From Candidatus Enterousia sp. (GTDB taxonomy: Bacteria > Pseudomonadota > Alphaproteobacteria > Rs-D84), in contig JAZQCF010000001.1 in NCBI GenBank assembly GCA_045546075.1, positions 8,299 through 72,298 of the forward strand: DNA of 64,000 nt, written 5' to 3'. The position numbers were made by a program, and so were the translations under genes. The notes under the pieces are model-generated. The model saw only the letters and a program-made list of their open reading frames with translations, had not been told where the DNA came from and ran no database searches. Shown here piece by piece: positions 48,988 through 56,915 of this stretch (position 1 is the stretch's first letter; the number at the start of each line of letters is the position of its first letter).

Positions 48988-49719
48988 ATGCAAATAACAA
49001 TGCGACCAATGACGGTTGATGAAGCATGGAATTATATTCTTGAACGGCATACAGCATTTCATGACAGCTTAAAAAATTTTGGGTATAAATATAACCTTTG
49101 GGTGCCGAAACCGAATAACGAATATATCAAGGCAATGTTCGAAAAAGATAAGTTAACAGACCAAGAAATAAACTTTTATAAAAATTTCTTTACCAATAAA
49201 ATCTATAATATTGATGATTTGCGACGGTTTGATGGTATATTCGACGAATTTGTAAAACCTATGTTGGAAAGGAGTATAAATAAATTTTTGGTTCCTTTGT
49301 TACCAAGTTGGAACGCGAATTTGCCCGAAAAGTTAGAAATTTTATGTACCTATGGTGTGGGCGCGGGATATGACCGTAAAAGCGATGAAGTTGCCACAAT
49401 AACTTTTCGTATGTCAAGATATCCAGACAACAAGGAAAAGATACTTGATACTATGTTGCATGAATTTATTCATTTATTAATAGAAAAACCAATAATACAA
49501 CAATACGATGTTCCGCATAATTTTAAAGAACGAATTGTTGATAACATAGGGCAAATATTTTATAACAGATACCCCCAAGAAAAATTTATAAATCCTTTCG
49601 TCGATAAATATATTACCGCCACGGCAATCAAAACAGATTTACCTGGCGCGGTAAAAAAGATGATGACAGATTATAAAATGTTGCGGCAGAAACAAATTCA
49701 GCAAGGACAAAGTTTTTAA
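48988..49719 (+). CDS. Hypothetical protein with an HExxH motif (possible Zn-metallopeptidase fold)
   Basis: MLHEFIHLLIE is the only motif I recognise. No signal peptide. AT-rich gene. Confidence 0.45.
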   Translation: MQITMRPMTVDEAWNYILERHTAFHDSLKNFGYKYNLWVPKPNNEYIKAMFEKDKLTDQEINFYKNFFTNKIYNIDDLRRFDGIFDEFVKPMLERSINKFLVPLLPSWNANLPEKLEILCTYGVGAGYDRKSDEVATITFRMSRYPDNKEKILDTMLHEFIHLLIEKPIIQQYDVPHNFKERIVDNIGQIFYNRYPQEKFINPFVDKYITATAIKTDLPGAVKKMMTDYKMLRQKQIQQGQSF

Positions 49720-49859: not shown

Positions 49860-50552
49860 ATGTACGAATATTTAATAATTTATGGATTGATGATAGTCAA
49901 ACTTGTTTTGGCAATTGTATCTGTTGTTATCTTTATGCATTTTTTCAGTTCATCCGGCAATCTAAAACAATCCACCCCGCTTTCTGTTATAATAAACTTC
50001 CTGCTTAGTGCGATTTTATCGGGTTTTATATTAAATGACCGCATAAATATTCTAGAATTTACAATTGTTGTTTTGATATACGGCGGAATAATCAGCGCCC
50101 TAAACCGATTGGCGTTTTACACTAATTTTGGTCGTCGCATGTTCGTCGGCATACCCAAAGTATTGGTCCAAAACGGTCAATTAAACACGAAACGAATGCA
50201 AAAACTTAAAATATCTGCACGCGATTTAGTCGTCGCCATGCGAAAACACAAAATACGTTCTCTTGACGACATTGAAATGGCCCAGATTGAACCCACCGGC
50301 GAATTGACCATTGTAAAGAAAGGCGCAGAAAAATATTCAATTGTATTGATTGATAACGGAATTATCGACCGTATCGCATTAAAGAAAATAAACCGTACCG
50401 AAAAATGGCTGCGCCAAAAATTGCGTGAAAAAAAGATAACAACAACCAATAATATTTTTGTCGCCCAATGGCACCATGGAAAACTGTATATAGTAAAAAA
50501 GAACAAGGGATTAAATAACGCCACGCCCCCGACACAAAAATCTAATACATAA
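49860..50552 (+). CDS. DUF421 (YetF-like) membrane protein
   Basis: Three N-terminal TM helices and a C-terminal soluble domain (ISARDLVVAMRKHKIRSLDDIEMAQIEPTGELTIVKK) resembling the YetF family. Start set at MYEYLII (49860). Confidence 0.65.
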   Translation: MYEYLIIYGLMIVKLVLAIVSVVIFMHFFSSSGNLKQSTPLSVIINFLLSAILSGFILNDRINILEFTIVVLIYGGIISALNRLAFYTNFGRRMFVGIPKVLVQNGQLNTKRMQKLKISARDLVVAMRKHKIRSLDDIEMAQIEPTGELTIVKKGAEKYSIVLIDNGIIDRIALKKINRTEKWLRQKLREKKITTTNNIFVAQWHHGKLYIVKKNKGLNNATPPTQKSNT

Positions 50553-50715
50553 AATCCAACAGGTCATAAAACTAATAACATTCTTTCATCAAATACGTTT
50601 TACGACCAATATATATTTGTTTATTTTTCAACCATACCGTCCGCACAATCCATTGCAACCGCGGGCGATAAAATACCAACACAAAACAAACCAAAGCAAA
50701 ATTTTTTCATACTTT

Positions 50716-51336
50716 TTATTTTTTCCTTGGCTCTACGCATTCGCCGTCGCCTTCGCGGGGACAGCACGCAAATTTCATCTGGGAAACTTCTTTGAACTTT
50801 TCACCCGTACAGCATCCAAACCGATTGGGTTTTGCCCCATCATCACACAGGCCTTTGGCGCGATTTTCTTCTATTTGCGCCAATTCAGCCGCCAATTCTT
50901 CGGGCGTTTTTTCTGGTACCGGTTCGGGTTCTGGTGCCGGTTCTGGTGTGGCATCAACCTCTTCTTCTACAACTTCTTCTGCAACCTGGGGTTCAACAAA
51001 ATTTTTGGCCGGATTTACATTTTCATAGTTATGAACCGGTCTGCGCCGCGCGCGTGCCGCACACACCGTGCGTTGCCGCGACAACATATATTCTAAATCG
51101 GGGGCCAATTCCGGATACGCCTTGATATCTTCGCGCAGTTCTTCAACGCGTTGATTTATGTCGGCGCAACTCATCCGCTCTACCACCGCGCGTGGGGCGG
51201 GAACTTCTTCCACCGCGGCGGTATCAACAACTGTGGTTTCTGCGTCATCCGCAACAACCGATTCCAGGTTTGATTCATCCGCCAATGCCGGCGCACACAC
51301 AAATACGCCAAGTATCGCAATTATTTTTATGTTCAT
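50716..51336 (-). CDS. Exported acidic/Pro-Glu-rich protein ending in the C-x9-GCC-x14-CCP-x6-C motif
   Basis: Signal peptide MNIKIIAILGVFVCAPALA/DE, the linker PEPAPEPEPVPEKTPEE, and the C-terminus LCDDGAKPNRFGCCTGEKFKEVSQMKFACCPREGDGECVEP. Strong SD (AAGGGGGG). Confidence 0.55.
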   Translation of the reverse strand: MNIKIIAILGVFVCAPALADESNLESVVADDAETTVVDTAAVEEVPAPRAVVERMSCADINQRVEELREDIKAYPELAPDLEYMLSRQRTVCAARARRRPVHNYENVNPAKNFVEPQVAEEVVEEEVDATPEPAPEPEPVPEKTPEELAAELAQIEENRAKGLCDDGAKPNRFGCCTGEKFKEVSQMKFACCPREGDGECVEPRKK

Positions 51337-51356
51337 TCCGCCCCCCTTTGAATTTT

Positions 51357-52109
51357 TTATTCTTCAATTATGCGTTGCAATTCCAATATAAAATCGATTC
51401 CCGGATTAACCATTTTTTCAACTTTATTCAGGTATTTTTTTGCTTCGTTCTGCATTTGCAGTTTTTTATAGGTATTTATCGTAGAACGAATTTCACTGGT
51501 ATCAATATTTGCATCATTAACGCGCACACCATCGGCAATTTTTAATTCATCCAAAGCCTTTTGCGCATATTTCTGGCGATTTTCCGTACAACCATCTTCC
51601 GCCATTTTCGAATATATCTCGGCATTTTCTAAATGACAATTTGGTGAATCGCCACAATTCTGTATATTAGATAACAAATTTCTTTCAATGACGGCACATG
51701 GACTATCATCAACAATATTCTCATCAAAAATTTTACGCAAAACTTCAAAGGTTGCAAATTCTGCATCTCTCATTTCTTTATACTTGTCGGTATTTTCGTC
51801 ACAGCCCCACTTTGCCAACCTGTCATAAATATCGGCATTATGTCTATGGGCCGTTGTTGCCCATCTCAGGTCTGCATCATTTATGTTATAATTCAGTTGT
51901 GCCAACAATGCATTTTCGCGCATTTGGCAACCACTTAATTCTGTCTGTACGGCGGAATCCGGCGTATAGACGGTTTTTGCCTGCCAAATAAACGCGCCCG
52001 CCATCATACCACATACAAATATTCCAATCAATGCGACCCAGGCCAAAATTCTTTGACGGCGCGAATATGTATAAACTTTTTCATTTACGATTTTTTTATT
52101 CTCTCTCAT
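51357..52109 (-). CDS. Membrane-anchored protein with an internal NA[DE]IY..[LM]A..GC.EN..KY repeat
   Basis: One TM helix (ILAWVALIGIFVCGMMAGAFIW). The repeats are HRHNADIYDRLAKWGCDENTDKY (aa 88-110) and HLENAEIYSKMAEDGCTENRQKY (aa 159-181). Confidence 0.55.
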   Translation of the reverse strand: MRENKKIVNEKVYTYSRRQRILAWVALIGIFVCGMMAGAFIWQAKTVYTPDSAVQTELSGCQMRENALLAQLNYNINDADLRWATTAHRHNADIYDRLAKWGCDENTDKYKEMRDAEFATFEVLRKIFDENIVDDSPCAVIERNLLSNIQNCGDSPNCHLENAEIYSKMAEDGCTENRQKYAQKALDELKIADGVRVNDANIDTSEIRSTINTYKKLQMQNEAKKYLNKVEKMVNPGIDFILELQRIIEE

Positions 52110-52128
52110 TTTTTCTCCCCTTTATATT

Positions 52129-52839
52129 TTATTTAACGATGCCTTTTTTAATTGTAATCTGGCGGTCGGCACGGTTGGCCAACGACATATCGTGCGTCAC
52201 AAACAACATTGCCATTTTATTTTTCCTTACCAAATCCAACAGCAATTCAAAAACGCTGATTGCGTGATTTGGATCCAAACTGCCCGTTGGTTCGTCCGCC
52301 AACAATATATCCGGCGTGTTTGCCAACGCGCGCGCAACCGCGGTGCGTTGTTGTTCACCACCCGACATTTGCCCCGGCAGATGTGATGCCCGATGCGCCA
52401 CATTGGCGGATTTTAACAGTTTCATCGCGCGTGCGTACGCCGCATCCGCGTCCATACCGTTTGCCAACATTGGCAACATAACGTTTTCCACCGCCGTAAA
52501 ATCAGACAACAAATTATGCCGCTGATATACAAATCCCATTTTGCGCCGGCGAATCATTGTCCGCATTTCTTCGTTCATTGTGTGAACCGGCGTGCCAGAA
52601 ACCAAAATACTGCCCCCCGACGGTTTATCCAATAAACCCACACATTGTAACAGGGTTGATTTCCCCGAACCCGACGGACCAACCAGGGCGATAATTTCAC
52701 CACGGTGTAAATCAAACCCGCCCCCGGTTAGAATATGCAACGGTTGACCACCTTCTATAAAGGTCTTTTTAATATCGCGCACCGACAGGACCACATCGCC
52801 CTGCTTTGCCCGTGATAAAGAATTCAATATAGATGCCAT
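52129..52839 (-). CDS. lolD: Lipoprotein-releasing system ATP-binding protein LolD
   Basis: GPSGSGKSTLLQ (Walker A), LSGGEQQRTAVARAL (signature) and LLADEPTGSLD (Walker B). Confidence 0.88.
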   Translation of the reverse strand: MASILNSLSRAKQGDVVLSVRDIKKTFIEGGQPLHILTGGGFDLHRGEIIALVGPSGSGKSTLLQCVGLLDKPSGGSILVSGTPVHTMNEEMRTMIRRRKMGFVYQRHNLLSDFTAVENVMLPMLANGMDADAAYARAMKLLKSANVAHRASHLPGQMSGGEQQRTAVARALANTPDILLADEPTGSLDPNHAISVFELLLDLVRKNKMAMLFVTHDMSLANRADRQITIKKGIVK

Positions 52840-53519
52840 TATTTTATGTCTCGCCCTTTATTAGTTTTTATGATAGCATTTTGTTTATTTTTTTCCAATG
52901 CAGAAATTATCTTGTTCGCTGTTTCCGGTGCCAACACATACCCAGTCATAATTCCATATGCTTTAATTTTATCATACAATTCTTGTTCATTCTTTAAAAC
53001 AATATCTATATGAATACCTTGCTGAAAACGCCCGCGGCAATAATAATCTATCTCTTTTGGCGCAAACCCAAATATTGACCCATATATAATATCATTACGT
53101 TTGCTTGGTATGTTTGGTAAATCCGGATTCAATTTGATTATCTTATCATATTCCAAAGATAATTTTTCATCATAACTTTTACTTTTTGATTTGATGTAAT
53201 CGATAACCTGCAATCTTGTTTGTTCATCTGGTATACTATTTTTAAAATCCGTTTGAAAACCAAACCTATCATCACCATTCAGCATTTCAAAATCTACATA
53301 AAAACCATACAGTGCAATTTTTTTCATATAATCTGCCTGTGTCACATTGTCCGGCATTTTATATTTATGAAATAATTTTATATTGTTAATACCGATTTTC
53401 TGTAATTGTTTTTCCAAATCTTTTGCAGACGAATTCCATTCTTCGCCATATGCATACGAATACCTTAATGCAATTTCGGCCAATTTGATTTCAATTGATT
53501 TATCTAAAGACTTATTCAT
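52839..53519 (-). CDS. Hypothetical cytoplasmic protein (226 aa) wedged between lolE and lolD
   Basis: Its ATG overlaps the lolE stop (ATGAATAA) and its stop overlaps the lolD start (TAATG). No signal peptide, TM helix or recognisable motif. Visibly AT-richer than its neighbours. Confidence 0.55.
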   Translation of the reverse strand: MNKSLDKSIEIKLAEIALRYSYAYGEEWNSSAKDLEKQLQKIGINNIKLFHKYKMPDNVTQADYMKKIALYGFYVDFEMLNGDDRFGFQTDFKNSIPDEQTRLQVIDYIKSKSKSYDEKLSLEYDKIIKLNPDLPNIPSKRNDIIYGSIFGFAPKEIDYYCRGRFQQGIHIDIVLKNEQELYDKIKAYGIMTGYVLAPETANKIISALEKNKQNAIIKTNKGRDIK

Positions 53520-54789
53520 TTCGCAACACCTCTACCGGGTCAGTGTTTGCGGCACGCCACGCCGGATATATGGTTGCCAAGAACGCCAGTGCGATTGCCA
53601 GCACCGCAATTCCAACAACCGTTGTAAATTCCAAACGCGATGGCAATTCAGACAAATAATACAATTCCGCCGGAAACAAATCGCGACCTGTTGCCCATTG
53701 AAAGAATTTGCGAATCGGTTCAATATAAATTGCCACAACCACGCCCAATATCGTCCCCAGCGCGGCACCAATCACACCAATACTGGTCCCCGACAGGATA
53801 AATATCTTCATCATTGAACGGCGTGAAACACCGAATGTCCGCAACACCGCAATATCGCGCGATTTGTCTTTGACCAACATAACCAAAGACGAAACGATAT
53901 TAAACGCCGCCACAATCACAATCAGCATTAAAATCAAAAACATAACATTTGTTTCAACCTGCAACGCACCAACAAATCCGCGGTTCAAATCACGCCAATC
54001 ACGCACCACATACCCATCGGGCAATGTTGCAATTAATGCCTCGCGCACGGGGGTTGTGTCTTCGGGATTTTTCAAGAATAAATCTATATGCGTTACCGCA
54101 TCCCCCAGGTTCAAATATTTCTGGGCGGTTTCCAACGGCATAAATATATATCCCGAATCATATTCATACATTCCCATAAAGAAAGATGTCATCACCGGAT
54201 AAGACATAATTCGCGGCATCGTTCCAAACGCAGTCGGTGTCGCCCCATTTGCCGAAACCAACGACACAGTTTCCCCCATATGCACATTCAGGTTTCGCGT
54301 CAAAGATGCACCCGCCACCAATTCACCATCGCGAATATCGCTAAGTTTTTTACCATACATCCGTGTTCCGGTTGCGGTCTTGGCCGCCAAATCGGTCATA
54401 CGAATTCCACGCACCATCGCACCGGTGTTGTTCCCATCGTGAGTAACCATAACCTGGCCTTCGGCGATTGGCACAATGGACGACACGGCGTTTTTCACAG
54501 TTTTGCCGCTTTTCATTTGTTCTATTAAAAAATCATAGTCCGCGATTGCGCCATCTTGGTGATATACAACAACGTGCCCGTTCATACCAACAATGCGCGA
54601 CAACAGCGTATCGTGAAAACCGCCCATAACCGACATAACCACAATCAGTGTCGCAACACCCAACATAATCCCAATCAACGACACCCACGACACCACGGAC
54701 CCAAACCCGCGTCCCCGCGCCCCCAGGTATCTAAATGCTATTTTTCTTTCCAATTTGCTGAACATCATACTACCTATTCTATCATCCAA
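53512..54789 (-). CDS. lolE: Lipoprotein-releasing system permease (LolC/LolE family, FtsX/MacB-type)
   Basis: KIAFRYLGARGRGFGSVVSWVSLIGIMLGVATLIVVMSVMGGFHDTLLSRIVGMNGHV, a large periplasmic domain and three C-terminal TM helices. The start could also be M8 or M9 (54768/54765). Confidence 0.85.
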   Translation of the reverse strand: MDDRIGSMMFSKLERKIAFRYLGARGRGFGSVVSWVSLIGIMLGVATLIVVMSVMGGFHDTLLSRIVGMNGHVVVYHQDGAIADYDFLIEQMKSGKTVKNAVSSIVPIAEGQVMVTHDGNNTGAMVRGIRMTDLAAKTATGTRMYGKKLSDIRDGELVAGASLTRNLNVHMGETVSLVSANGATPTAFGTMPRIMSYPVMTSFFMGMYEYDSGYIFMPLETAQKYLNLGDAVTHIDLFLKNPEDTTPVREALIATLPDGYVVRDWRDLNRGFVGALQVETNVMFLILMLIVIVAAFNIVSSLVMLVKDKSRDIAVLRTFGVSRRSMMKIFILSGTSIGVIGAALGTILGVVVAIYIEPIRKFFQWATGRDLFPAELYYLSELPSRLEFTTVVGIAVLAIALAFLATIYPAWRAANTDPVEVLRNE

Positions 54790-54791
54790 AA

Positions 54792-56111
54792 TTATTCGCG
54801 CAAGAAATTCCGCAATGCATCCCCGACCAACTGCGGTTCATCCGGAATATCATTTGGGTTTACAATCGAAACAATCCGTGGCGACATAAATACAACCAAT
54901 TCTGCAAACGGACTTATCAATGTTTCCGGTGTTGTAACAAACGAATGTGTTGGAATACCAATTATGACATAGTTATCACCGACACTGGACGGAATTGTAA
55001 ATGATGTCAATTCGCCCTTGCTGGTCCGCAGGACGATTTTCGCGTCTATCTTGTTTCGACCGGCGTAATCGCCGTATTTCGCACTGGCCCCCACAATCAG
55101 GTCTGTTTCTATACGGTCTTCTTTGCTGCATTGACCGATATCGAATCGGGATTGCCAACCGTCCGGCACCACAAAATGCCCCTGGGATATAAGAACAACA
55201 TTGGATTGCGCAGACAAGAATTCTTGTAATGTTTTGGTGTTAACTTCGGGCCCAACAACCAACGCACGCCCAACAACCCCCGGCACAGACATTTTAATAT
55301 TTTTTTCACCAAAGGCCGGCAACATATTCATCCATATAATTGGATTGTCCGTCCGCGGATACACGCGATACACATCCATATCCCACGCCAAGACATATTT
55401 TTTGGATGCTATATCGGCAATTATGCGTGTAACTTCGCGCTCGGTTTGATAATTGCCTTCGAAAACAACGGTTTTATCCGCCCAATCCACAATCAGGTTT
55501 CTTACATCCGCCCCATGCATTGCATCCAACAATGCCATTATTATATCCTGCTCTGCCGGCATTTTTATCAACCATTTTGCCCGATTGGACAGTTTTATTT
55601 CACCACCCGCGGCATCATATGAATAATACATCCGCCCCAGGCGTGCAATCAAATCCACCGTATCGGCCAGGTTTCCCGACGCAACCGACCCAGACACCTT
55701 TTCATATCCGGGTTCTTCTTCAATAACGGCAATATCAACACCTTCCAATAATTTATTTAACGCATTTGCAACGGTCTGTTTCCTGAAATCATAGTCCGTA
55801 ACGTTTAATTCCGGCAAATCATCACCTTTGTCCAGGCGCACCATTTCAATTTTTTCATCCGGCACAACCGACACAACCGATTGACTGTCCCAATTTACCG
55901 TGCATCGCCGCGGCAATTCGATAGAAAATCGCCGTGCGGTATCGGTGGTCAACGCCGCCTTTTTCGGGAAAATCGGCACAGAATTATCATCTATGACCAA
56001 ATTATCAATAACCTGAACCGTGTCATAGTATACCGTTTCATCCGCGCCATTGTTTCGCACACACGCCCCTAAACACACAGCCATCAAAACAAAATTTATT
56101 ATTTTTTTCAT
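54792..56111 (-). CDS. Outer-membrane lipoprotein with a secretin-like C-terminal region (tentative)
   Basis: Lipobox LGAC. An N-domain-like segment (QTVANALNKLLEGVDIAVI). The C-terminal pattern SNVVLISQGHFVVPDGWQSRFDIG...TIPSSVGDNYVIIGIP...AELVVFMSPRIVS resembles the secretin core (..v.dG.tvviGGl..eLlifitPriv). Confidence 0.4.
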   Translation of the reverse strand: MKKIINFVLMAVCLGACVRNNGADETVYYDTVQVIDNLVIDDNSVPIFPKKAALTTDTARRFSIELPRRCTVNWDSQSVVSVVPDEKIEMVRLDKGDDLPELNVTDYDFRKQTVANALNKLLEGVDIAVIEEEPGYEKVSGSVASGNLADTVDLIARLGRMYYSYDAAGGEIKLSNRAKWLIKMPAEQDIIMALLDAMHGADVRNLIVDWADKTVVFEGNYQTEREVTRIIADIASKKYVLAWDMDVYRVYPRTDNPIIWMNMLPAFGEKNIKMSVPGVVGRALVVGPEVNTKTLQEFLSAQSNVVLISQGHFVVPDGWQSRFDIGQCSKEDRIETDLIVGASAKYGDYAGRNKIDAKIVLRTSKGELTSFTIPSSVGDNYVIIGIPTHSFVTTPETLISPFAELVVFMSPRIVSIVNPNDIPDEPQLVGDALRNFLRE

Positions 56112-56126
56112 TTGTTTTACCCCGGG

Positions 56127-56450
56127 TTAAATATTCATTACCTTTTCGAATTCTTCCAATGTCATTTCATATATCGGCTTTTGCGAAGGCGTTGTCAAAT
56201 CACGCACATGTTCGAATTGCGCGCGAAACCGTTCCAAGACCGACACCACATCCGGCGATACATTTTTATTTGATTTTACCAAACGTTCACCATATTCTAC
56301 AACAAATTCTAACACATCCGCCGCAAAAAAACGACCGACATAATTTTCCATTGGAATTCCACCCTTGTTGACACATATTGCCGACATAGTCTTGGCGGTT
56401 TGATTATAAAAATTTGCCAACTTAATAAAATTTTGAACTGTTATCGCCAT
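56127..56450 (-). CDS. Hypothetical cytoplasmic protein (107 aa), first gene of the cluster
   Basis: GGGGGA SD 5 nt before ATG 56450. There is a 15-nt gap to the next gene. I recognise no motif. Confidence 0.45.
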   Translation of the reverse strand: MAITVQNFIKLANFYNQTAKTMSAICVNKGGIPMENYVGRFFAADVLEFVVEYGERLVKSNKNVSPDVVSVLERFRAQFEHVRDLTTPSQKPIYEMTLEEFEKVMNI

Positions 56451-56525
56451 CTTGTTCCCCCGATACATTTTTATACATTATAAAAACTATTGCCACCAAA
56501 ACGCAATTAAATTATAATAGGAAAT

Positions 56526-56915
56526 ATGAGAATGTTAAAAATATTTTTATTTGTTGGTTTATTTGGGATGGCGGCCTGCACATCCCCCAACGGCGGCAGC
56601 ATTGATGACGCAACCATTTTGAATTGGGAAAACGAATCTGTCACGACCGAACAGTTTGTTCGTGATCACCGGGCGTGCCTTGGGATAACACAACCATCAT
56701 ATATGCCACGTTCGCGCCTTGCAAAACTGTTGTCCCCAACACAAAGTACCCGTATGCCGGATTGGGATGGATTGTGGGTAACATTTCAATCAAACGAATA
56801 CAAGGATGTTGGCCAACGCGCATTATTGTCTGTGCCACGCAACACGACATCAAAATCTGTGGGATCTTACCGAAAATGTATGTTCCGCCGCGGATATTTA
56901 TTGCGCGCAATGTAA
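56526..56915 (+). CDS. Small lipoprotein
   Basis: Lipobox GMAAC after a hydrophobic signal. Divergent from the lol cluster and upstream of ftsQ. Confidence 0.5.
   Translation: MRMLKIFLFVGLFGMAACTSPNGGSIDDATILNWENESVTTEQFVRDHRACLGITQPSYMPRSRLAKLLSPTQSTRMPDWDGLWVTFQSNEYKDVGQRALLSVPRNTTSKSVGSYRKCMFRRGYLLRAM

Follow-up and report, generated by a model that had tools for sequence, protein, structure and literature searches.

An AT-rich gene of an undescribed family between lolE and lolD of Candidatus Enterousia, probably an exchangeable accessory cargo

Gene X and its junctions with lolE and lolD

The LolCDE and LolDF transporters are essential and a drug target, and their genes are normally contiguous. 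Here, we describe a gene, X, that lies between lolE and lolD in Candidatus Enterousia sp. (order Rs-D84), within a window of 64,000 nucleotides (nt) of contig JAZQCF010000001.1; all coordinates below, unless assigned to another genome, are positions in this window. Gene X (52839..53519, minus strand) encodes a 226-aa protein predicted to be soluble and all-alpha, and the order of genes on the minus strand is lolE, X and lolD. An earlier note on this DNA had described the 226-codon open reading frame (ORF), without its strand, and had placed its ATG within the last codons of lolE and its stop on a base shared with the lolD ATG; both overlaps were seen in the sequence. The upstream flank is a lolE/lolCE-type permease gene (53512..54789, minus strand), the product of which matched TIGR02212 (lolCE) with 416.6 bits, over the cut-off of the model, and contains FtsX and MacB_PCD domains. 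The downstream flank is a lolD-like ATPase gene (52129..52839, minus strand) with an ABC_tran domain, for which the best NCBIfam match was TIGR02211 (LolD; 1.5e-72), the score of 243.7 bits being below the model cut-off of 307.75 bits. Across the genus, amino acid identity is 75–98% for LolE and 74–98% for LolD, and both genes are putative anchors for recombination.

X overlaps lolE over 8 nt and lolD over 1 nt. The 5' edge of X (53512..53532, minus strand) is located wholly inside the conserved lolE codons ...P-V-E-V-L-R-N-E-stop, and consists of a Shine–Dalgarno (SD)-like GAGGTG (53527-53532), a 7-nt spacer, the ATG of X (53517-53519), which is within the final codons of lolE (...cgaaATGAATAA), and the lolE stop TAA (53512-53514). 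The 3' edge (52837..52860, minus strand) comprises the final codons of X, with an SD-like AAGGG/GAG for lolD, and the TAATG in which the TAA of X and the ATG of lolD share base 52839. A terminator scan detected no minus-strand terminator between lolE, X and lolD, a promoter scan gave promoter-like matches around X at the level of shuffled sequence only, and no Rfam match was found in 50500-56700. In a repeat scan, no transposon- or integron-type ends were detected at the boundaries of X, and short repeats occurred at chance level only. No recombinase is located beside X; its immediate neighbours are lolE and lolD only, and X is a single gene, not one of the two adjacent small genes of a toxin–antitoxin pair. 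A 22-nt imperfect inverted repeat (52725-52746 and 53616-53637, 82% complementary) flanks X roughly symmetrically, with one arm about 100 nt beyond either end and within the coding sequences of lolD and lolE, and is probably due to chance.

The composition of X also differs from that of its neighbours, as the earlier note had estimated from hand counts. In 300-nt windows, the G+C content was 28–33% within X versus 47–50% in the flanks. For the whole gene, G+C content was 30.0%, with 26% at third codon positions (GC3), which places X at the 0.4th percentile among the 725 ORFs of this genome (43.7% G+C, 0.97 Mb) that encode 150 aa or more. In each of the 15 occupied junctions that were examined, X had a lower G+C content than its flanks.

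By our own estimate, the probability that 226 codons stay open by chance in DNA of 30% G+C is about 1e-8. When 1.84 billion representative proteins were searched exhaustively with HMMER, 75 clusters of X homologues were obtained at E≤1e-3, mostly 200–250 aa in length. The named relatives originate from metagenome-assembled genomes (MAGs) of uncultured gut and rumen Alphaproteobacteria, Candidatus Enterousia among them, and 'hypothetical protein' was the sole name given to them by any source. Their alignment showed four conserved blocks (W-SSA-LE, KL-Y-YKLP, LNPEL and G-FGFAP-EI-Y) and five invariant residues (Y53, P56, N131, G147 and I157). The AlphaFold2 (AF2) model of X consists of ten helices, with a predicted local distance difference test score (pLDDT) of 94.1 and a predicted template modelling score (pTM) of 0.88. 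The pairwise ratio of non-synonymous to synonymous divergence (dN/dS) was 0.08–0.5 in 25 of 26 pairs of X, the exception being a near-identical pair, versus 0.01–0.11 for LolD and LolE, of which LolE spans 0.01–0.10; this points to selection on X that is purifying but relaxed. Given its homologues, this purifying selection and a confidently predicted fold, X is a real gene.

As the earlier note had proposed, we ran profile and Foldseek searches with X, and these returned no homologue of known function in Pfam, NCBIfam, PADLOC, PHROG, PDB or BFVD. There were no matches in Pfam or NCBIfam at E≤1, nor any Pfam match for ten longer relatives; none of the families of the PADLOC defence models matched X at E≤1, and the best match in PHROG was at E=0.078. 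A profile search of PDB by sequence gave noise only, and Foldseek of the model against PDB and BFVD gave nothing better than E=2, with a TM-score of 0.22 or less. No homology to the known Lol proteins (LolA/B/C/D/E/F) was detected by Pfam/NCBIfam, PDB sequence or fold. The X family and its fold are undescribed. The earlier note had recognized no signal peptide, transmembrane (TM) segment or motif in X, and this was borne out: no signal peptide and no TM segment were detected, the maximum Kyte–Doolittle value of a 19-mer being 0.85, and on this absence X is predicted to be cytoplasmic. The isoelectric points (pI) of the family range from 4.8 to 9.8, which ruled out a DNA mimic or nucleic-acid binder.

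Occurrence of X and its exchange between species

Genomes of the order Rs-D84 are about 0.9 Mb in size, and dependence on partner cells has been proposed for this order (PMC12306168). All genomes surveyed here are MAGs, for which chimerism at a junction is possible; the same pattern was, however, seen in dozens of assemblies that are independent of each other. Of 328 genomes of the order searched with a family profile, 120 carried X; these all belong to one family-level clade (f1) and are distributed over 12 of 30 genera, namely, Candidatus Enterousia and sister genera. The survey of lolE–lolD junctions, likewise proposed in the earlier note, identified an X homologue at the exact lolE–lolD position in at least 11 of 37 Enterousia species (about 30%). 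Among 25 Enterousia genomes examined directly, 18 carried lolE and lolD 2–43 nt apart with X absent, and the junction was also empty in four genomes from two outgroup families. LolD was present in 41 of 41 genomes, and thus X does not accompany LolDE wherever the pathway exists. In one outgroup genome, from another family of the order (L038, G037), a gene for a 402-aa multi-TM protein (274-1482 of that locus), resembling the major facilitator superfamily by eye, is located between lolE and lolD.

At the nucleotide level, all 15 occupied junctions start with ATGAATA, and 14 of these read ATGAATAA. The 22 empty junctions all retain the ...R-N-E-stop end of lolE, with TAA, an AAGG-type SD sequence, a spacer and the ATG of lolD following; in about one-third of them, synonymous codons (AAC GAA) abolish the embedded ATG. 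These junction sequences indicate that lolE supplies the SD sequence and start codon of X, and that the C-terminal K-G-x codons of X form the ribosome-binding site (RBS) of lolD. On the tree of LolE and LolD, empty sites are intermingled with occupied ones among close relatives, and well-supported branches force at least nine changes of state between empty and occupied.

Within this one slot, the alleles of X are 25–80% identical across dozens of species, so that the simple recent insertion considered in the earlier note does not describe the gene. In the tree of X, the copies from the Lol slot fall into at least six deep clades, mixed with copies from other contexts. The divergence of X was then compared with that of its flanks in pairs of genomes, using synonymous divergence (dS). 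In the pair L059/L095, LolE and LolD are 97.6% and 98.3% identical in amino acid sequence, with flank dS of 0.5–0.6, whereas X is only 33% identical, with dS of about 2 (saturated); at the nucleotide level, identity falls from about 90% to about 45%, precisely at the borders of the genes. An A-type allele of X was also found within a clade of D-type LolDE of 96–98% identity. The reverse pattern was observed in three pairs, in which the dS of X was 5–30 times lower than that of the flanks: L005/L076 (X 0.02, flanks 0.6–0.75), L078/L080 (X 0.14, flanks about 1.0) and L099/L101 (X 0.08, flanks 0.5–0.74). Simple divergence of X under relaxed constraint was ruled out by these dS contrasts. The ends of the high-identity tracts are ragged, lying about 50 nt into lolE, about 150–200 nt into lolD, or inside X, which argues for homologous recombination anchored in the conserved flanks and against site-specific insertion. 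Taken with the lack of boundary repeats and of a recombinase, the comparison of these sequences indicates homologous recombination between species.

The region downstream of lolD (50716-52109) is also highly variable between species, with identity immediately after lolD of about 40% in L005/L076 (alignment columns beyond 2650) and about 50–85% in two other pairs; a TM-anchored Cys-repeat gene and an acidic exported gene located there may be variable cargo as well. Further along the window, another very AT-rich ORF (48988-49719, about 30% G+C, 243 aa) has one HEFIH motif and, at most, a weak SprT-like match (E=0.22), and is unrelated to X.

A second slot, unrelated cargo and associated domains

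A second position of X was identified in a MacAB-like operon (OEP-HlyD-ATPase-X-permease) of at least seven sister genera, in which X is located between the ATPase gene and the gene for a permease with MacB_PCD and FtsX domains. At the start of this Mac slot, the ATPase stop overlaps the start of X as TAATG, and at its end, the permease ATG lies inside the final codons of X in three genomes. We examined 30 Mac-type junctions, of which 12 contained X, eight were empty, three contained a gene for a 23S_rRNA_IVP (PF05635) four-helix-bundle protein (L116, L125 and L126; G296, G308 and G321, respectively) and one contained an ORF6N (PF10543) gene (L139, G311). Other Mac-type junctions carried kinase-like genes on the opposite strand, thymidylate- or guanylate-kinase-like in genus g29. 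In one genome, two divergent genes of the X family stand in tandem in the Mac slot (L071 2409-3716, G069).

The genome of the window has its own MacAB-like operon, in which the ATPase–permease junction is empty. Two genes with an FtsX domain (PF02687) were detected in this genome, those for LolE and the MacB-like permease. With only two FtsX-type permeases in this genome, the X family uses both available junctions of ATP-binding cassette (ABC) transporters of type VII. A separate FtsX was not found in the window genome, and FtsEX may be absent from it.

None of 29 genomes of the sister genera carried X in the Lol slot. Instead, this slot contained a NUDIX gene (PF00293) in three genomes (L149 915-1490, L150 962-1504 and L161 961-1497; G314, G313 and G325, respectively) and a gene for a P-loop kinase of the Zeta_toxin family (PF06414) in one (L145 789-1466; G308). 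All four of these genes start at the ATG embedded in lolE, as MN.. or MS... Zeta_toxin, NUDIX, ORF6N and Avd-like 23S_rRNA_IVP proteins are common in conflict systems.

About one-third of the copies of X are located in other operons, in approximately ten contexts that are mostly co-directional, tightly spaced and of housekeeping function, such as after DHDPS, after RmlD, before TsaE and before DUF374-LpxK.

X also occurs in longer proteins. Besides an X-X tandem fusion (P0062), we identified the architectures X-Y, T-X, Y-T and Y-Y, in which Y stands C-terminal and T N-terminal to X. Y and T are two further lineage-specific domains, shuffled with each other and with X (P0095-P0098, P0099-P0119). 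The Y domain is marked by the motifs LYHGS...FATSD...AKNYA, the first of which varies as YHG[ST]. The T domain was modelled at pLDDT 75–90 and had a Pfam match at E=0.0026, below the cut-off; its predicted fold matched the transglutaminase (TGase)-like Cys-His fold of vasohibins, TGases, arylamine N-acetyltransferases and LapG (probability 0.99–1.0, E down to 6e-4). In two genomes, X is preceded, about 1 kb upstream, by a stand-alone T gene. No relatives of X, Y or T were found in the phage collection. The window genome carries Y-like genes elsewhere (G000:C10:60247-60738 and G000:C5:1681-2264).

Interpretation and comparison with known systems

On balance, we favour the reading that X is dispensable and hitch-hikes in the operon as an accessory or conflict gene, its expression relying on translational coupling, and that it is not a subunit of the Lol transporter; the coupling is presumed, and the functional class is inferred from the genomic behaviour of X and its fusions. 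Several lines of evidence lead to this reading: X is optional, its alleles are swapped beside invariant LolD and LolE, its transfer between species has left tracts of homologous recombination and its composition is extreme; furthermore, it occurs in unrelated operons, its junctions also accept unrelated cargo of conflict type, and it is shuffled with enzyme-like modules. As at hotspots flanked by core genes, the same site is empty or holds unrelated genes in relatives, and exchange proceeds independently of the flanks.

The junction between the lol permease and ATPase genes would then serve as a docking slot for a single gene, with X as the cargo. The conserved last codons of lolE provide the SD-like GAGGTG and the ATG for the cargo, and the 3' end of the cargo bears the RBS of lolD and abuts or overlaps its ATG. 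X would be expressed without a promoter of its own, via translational coupling to lolE, and its function would be other than lipoprotein export. It may belong to a pool of genes for conflict or interaction between organisms, being effector-, immunity- or defence-like, the diversity of which could be maintained by frequency-dependent selection, and the conserved essential flanks may act both as a safe harbour and as anchors for recombination. A broader proposal is that the Lol and MacAB-like junctions are integrase-free cassette platforms, in which the upstream gene gives the RBS and start codon and promoterless, translationally coupled cargo is traded by homologous recombination; we regard the chances for and against this proposal as evenly balanced.

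Several observations weigh against X being a hitch-hiker in a permissive slot. All 40 occupied Lol slots examined in Enterousia contained X, with no other cargo. Two of the roughly 15–17 distinct contexts of X are the sole ATPase–permease junctions of type VII ABC operons in these genomes, and by our own post hoc estimate chance would yield about 0.04 placements of this kind; the use of both could reflect a functional tie to the transporters. That both junctions admit other cargo as well could explain the enrichment of X there in a different way. As to a role in conflict, no defence, toxin, immunity or phage family in the profile libraries matched X, no relatives were found in INPHARED, PLSDB (tblastn) or IMG/VR, and X has neither a partner gene beside it nor an evident catalytic motif. 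The sole family hint for the Y domain was ART-PolyVal at E=0.039, which is sub-threshold, and its AF2 model was poor; with its motif, this gives Y a weak and possible resemblance to ADP-ribosyltransferases (ART-like).

As the main alternative, X would act in the cytoplasm on type VII (MacB/Lol-type) ABC transporters, as a dedicated accessory or regulator. The conserved SSA, YKLP, LNPEL and GFxPxEI motifs would then mediate binding to the ATPase, or to the permease on its cytoplasmic side, and thereby modulate ATP turnover or shield the transporter from an inhibitor. X is linked to the ATPase and permease genes in both the Lol and the MacAB-like slots, lying between them with overlaps at both ends; it is retained under purifying selection; and the exclusive occupation of the Enterousia Lol slot by X (40 of 40) also fits such a role. 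Moreover, the two operons are not arranged alike, with X between the transmembrane domain (TMD) and nucleotide-binding domain (NBD) genes as TMD-X-NBD in Lol and as NBD-X-TMD in Mac, and recombination between paralogues therefore does not account for the move. However, the transporters operate without X in about two-thirds of the species and in the MacAB-like operon of the window genome, and alleles of X that are 33% identical stand beside LolD and LolE that are 98% identical; this dispensability and allele swapping argue against an obligate partner. About one-third of the family is also found in unrelated operons, and the same junctions take unrelated cargo. To our knowledge, all partners of type VII ABC transporters (MacA, LolA, EnvC and TesA) are periplasmic. 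We consider a transporter accessory unlikely, while giving it more weight than any other alternative. The earlier note had offered both a Lol accessory or regulator and a selfish or defence-type insertion. The second stands in so far as X is optional, exchanged and located in a slot with unrelated cargo; the first is weakened by the dispensability of X, its replacement beside 98%-identical LolD and LolE and its copies in unrelated operons, and it keeps support from the presence of the family between the ATPase and permease genes of the one other type VII ABC operon.

A narrower possibility, which we consider improbable as a specific assignment, is that X is a single-gene anti-phage defence or counter-defence protein and the junction a miniature defence hotspot. 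This would be one form of the hitch-hiking reading, and the present data do not set it apart from a role as effector or immunity protein. In agreement with it are the presence/absence polymorphism of X, its deep allelic lineages, transfer between species, AT-richness and multi-copy paralogues, as well as the neighbouring cargo types (Zeta_toxin, NUDIX, ORF6N and Avd-like 23S_rRNA_IVP), which are common in conflict systems. Set against this are the absence of PADLOC and PHROG matches, of a recognizable effector domain in the 226-aa form and of phage-borne relatives.

Old, vertical inheritance of a fast-evolving X with repeated loss and no horizontal exchange is very unlikely. The X clade F and most of clade C do follow clades of LolE and LolD, and the dS of X is similar to that of the flanks in L095/L099 and L040/L041 and moderately lower in L022/L097 and L007/L079. 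This explanation is contradicted by the dS contrasts, including the three pairs with 5- to 30-fold lower dS in X and the pair in which X is saturated at a flank dS of about 0.55, and by the A-type allele inside the 96–98% identical D-type LolDE clade. Finally, a spurious ORF or a one-off, recent and functionless foreign insertion, to which the extreme composition and the lack of any annotation might point, is refuted by dozens of divergent homologues in the same slot, purifying selection and a confidently predicted fold.

At the X slot, the operon of an essential transporter accommodates a foreign gene that is exchanged rapidly and joined to it by overlapping codons, and the operon apparently serves as a platform for the expression of this gene. 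Such a platform would allow compact, recombinase-free flow of accessory genes in genomes of about 0.9 Mb, a size for which only a small number of such routes is known. The X family is also a candidate for mediating the interactions of these partner-dependent, uncultured gut bacteria with other cells or phages. In a stronger variant of the platform, in which X acts on the transporters, X would be the first cytoplasmic accessory or modulator of a type VII ABC system.

Compared with known systems, X resembles MacA, LolA, EnvC and TesA in that their genes are located with or near transporter genes; these known partners are periplasmic and conserved with the transporter, whereas X is predicted to be cytoplasmic and is optional and hypervariable. 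The PF05635 and PF10543 genes are, like X, small genes of unclear role lodged in highly conserved loci, and in other genomes they occupy the same MacB-type ATPase–permease junction, but their products have no kinship to X in sequence or fold. With modular effector and polymorphic-toxin-like families, X shares restriction to a lineage and fast evolution, and it may share shuffling with enzymatic effector-type domains (TGase/vasohibin-like and possibly ART-like); it differs from them in that neither a signal for secretion nor a delivery system nor an immunity gene beside it was identified for X, and the 226-aa form consists of the X module alone.

The closest resemblance is to accessory and defence hotspots flanked by core genes and to integron cassettes. 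The X slot shares with the hotspots conserved essential flanks, unrelated cargo alternating with empty sites, transfer between species with tracts ending in the flanks, and AT-rich cargo. Unlike those hotspots, it contains one promoterless gene inside an essential operon, joined to its neighbours through overlaps of start and stop codons. Its SD sequence and ATG come from the upstream gene, and integrase, tRNA and repeats are absent. As in integrons, the cargo consists of promoterless single genes of diverse function expressed from a host platform, but attC-like repeats and an integrase are lacking, exchange proceeds by homologous recombination, and expression would depend on translational coupling instead of a Pc promoter. 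What is new at the X slot is thus the placement of one gene inside an essential operon, under start signals of the upstream gene and with neither recombinase nor repeats, in an arrangement that otherwise resembles hotspots and integron cassettes.

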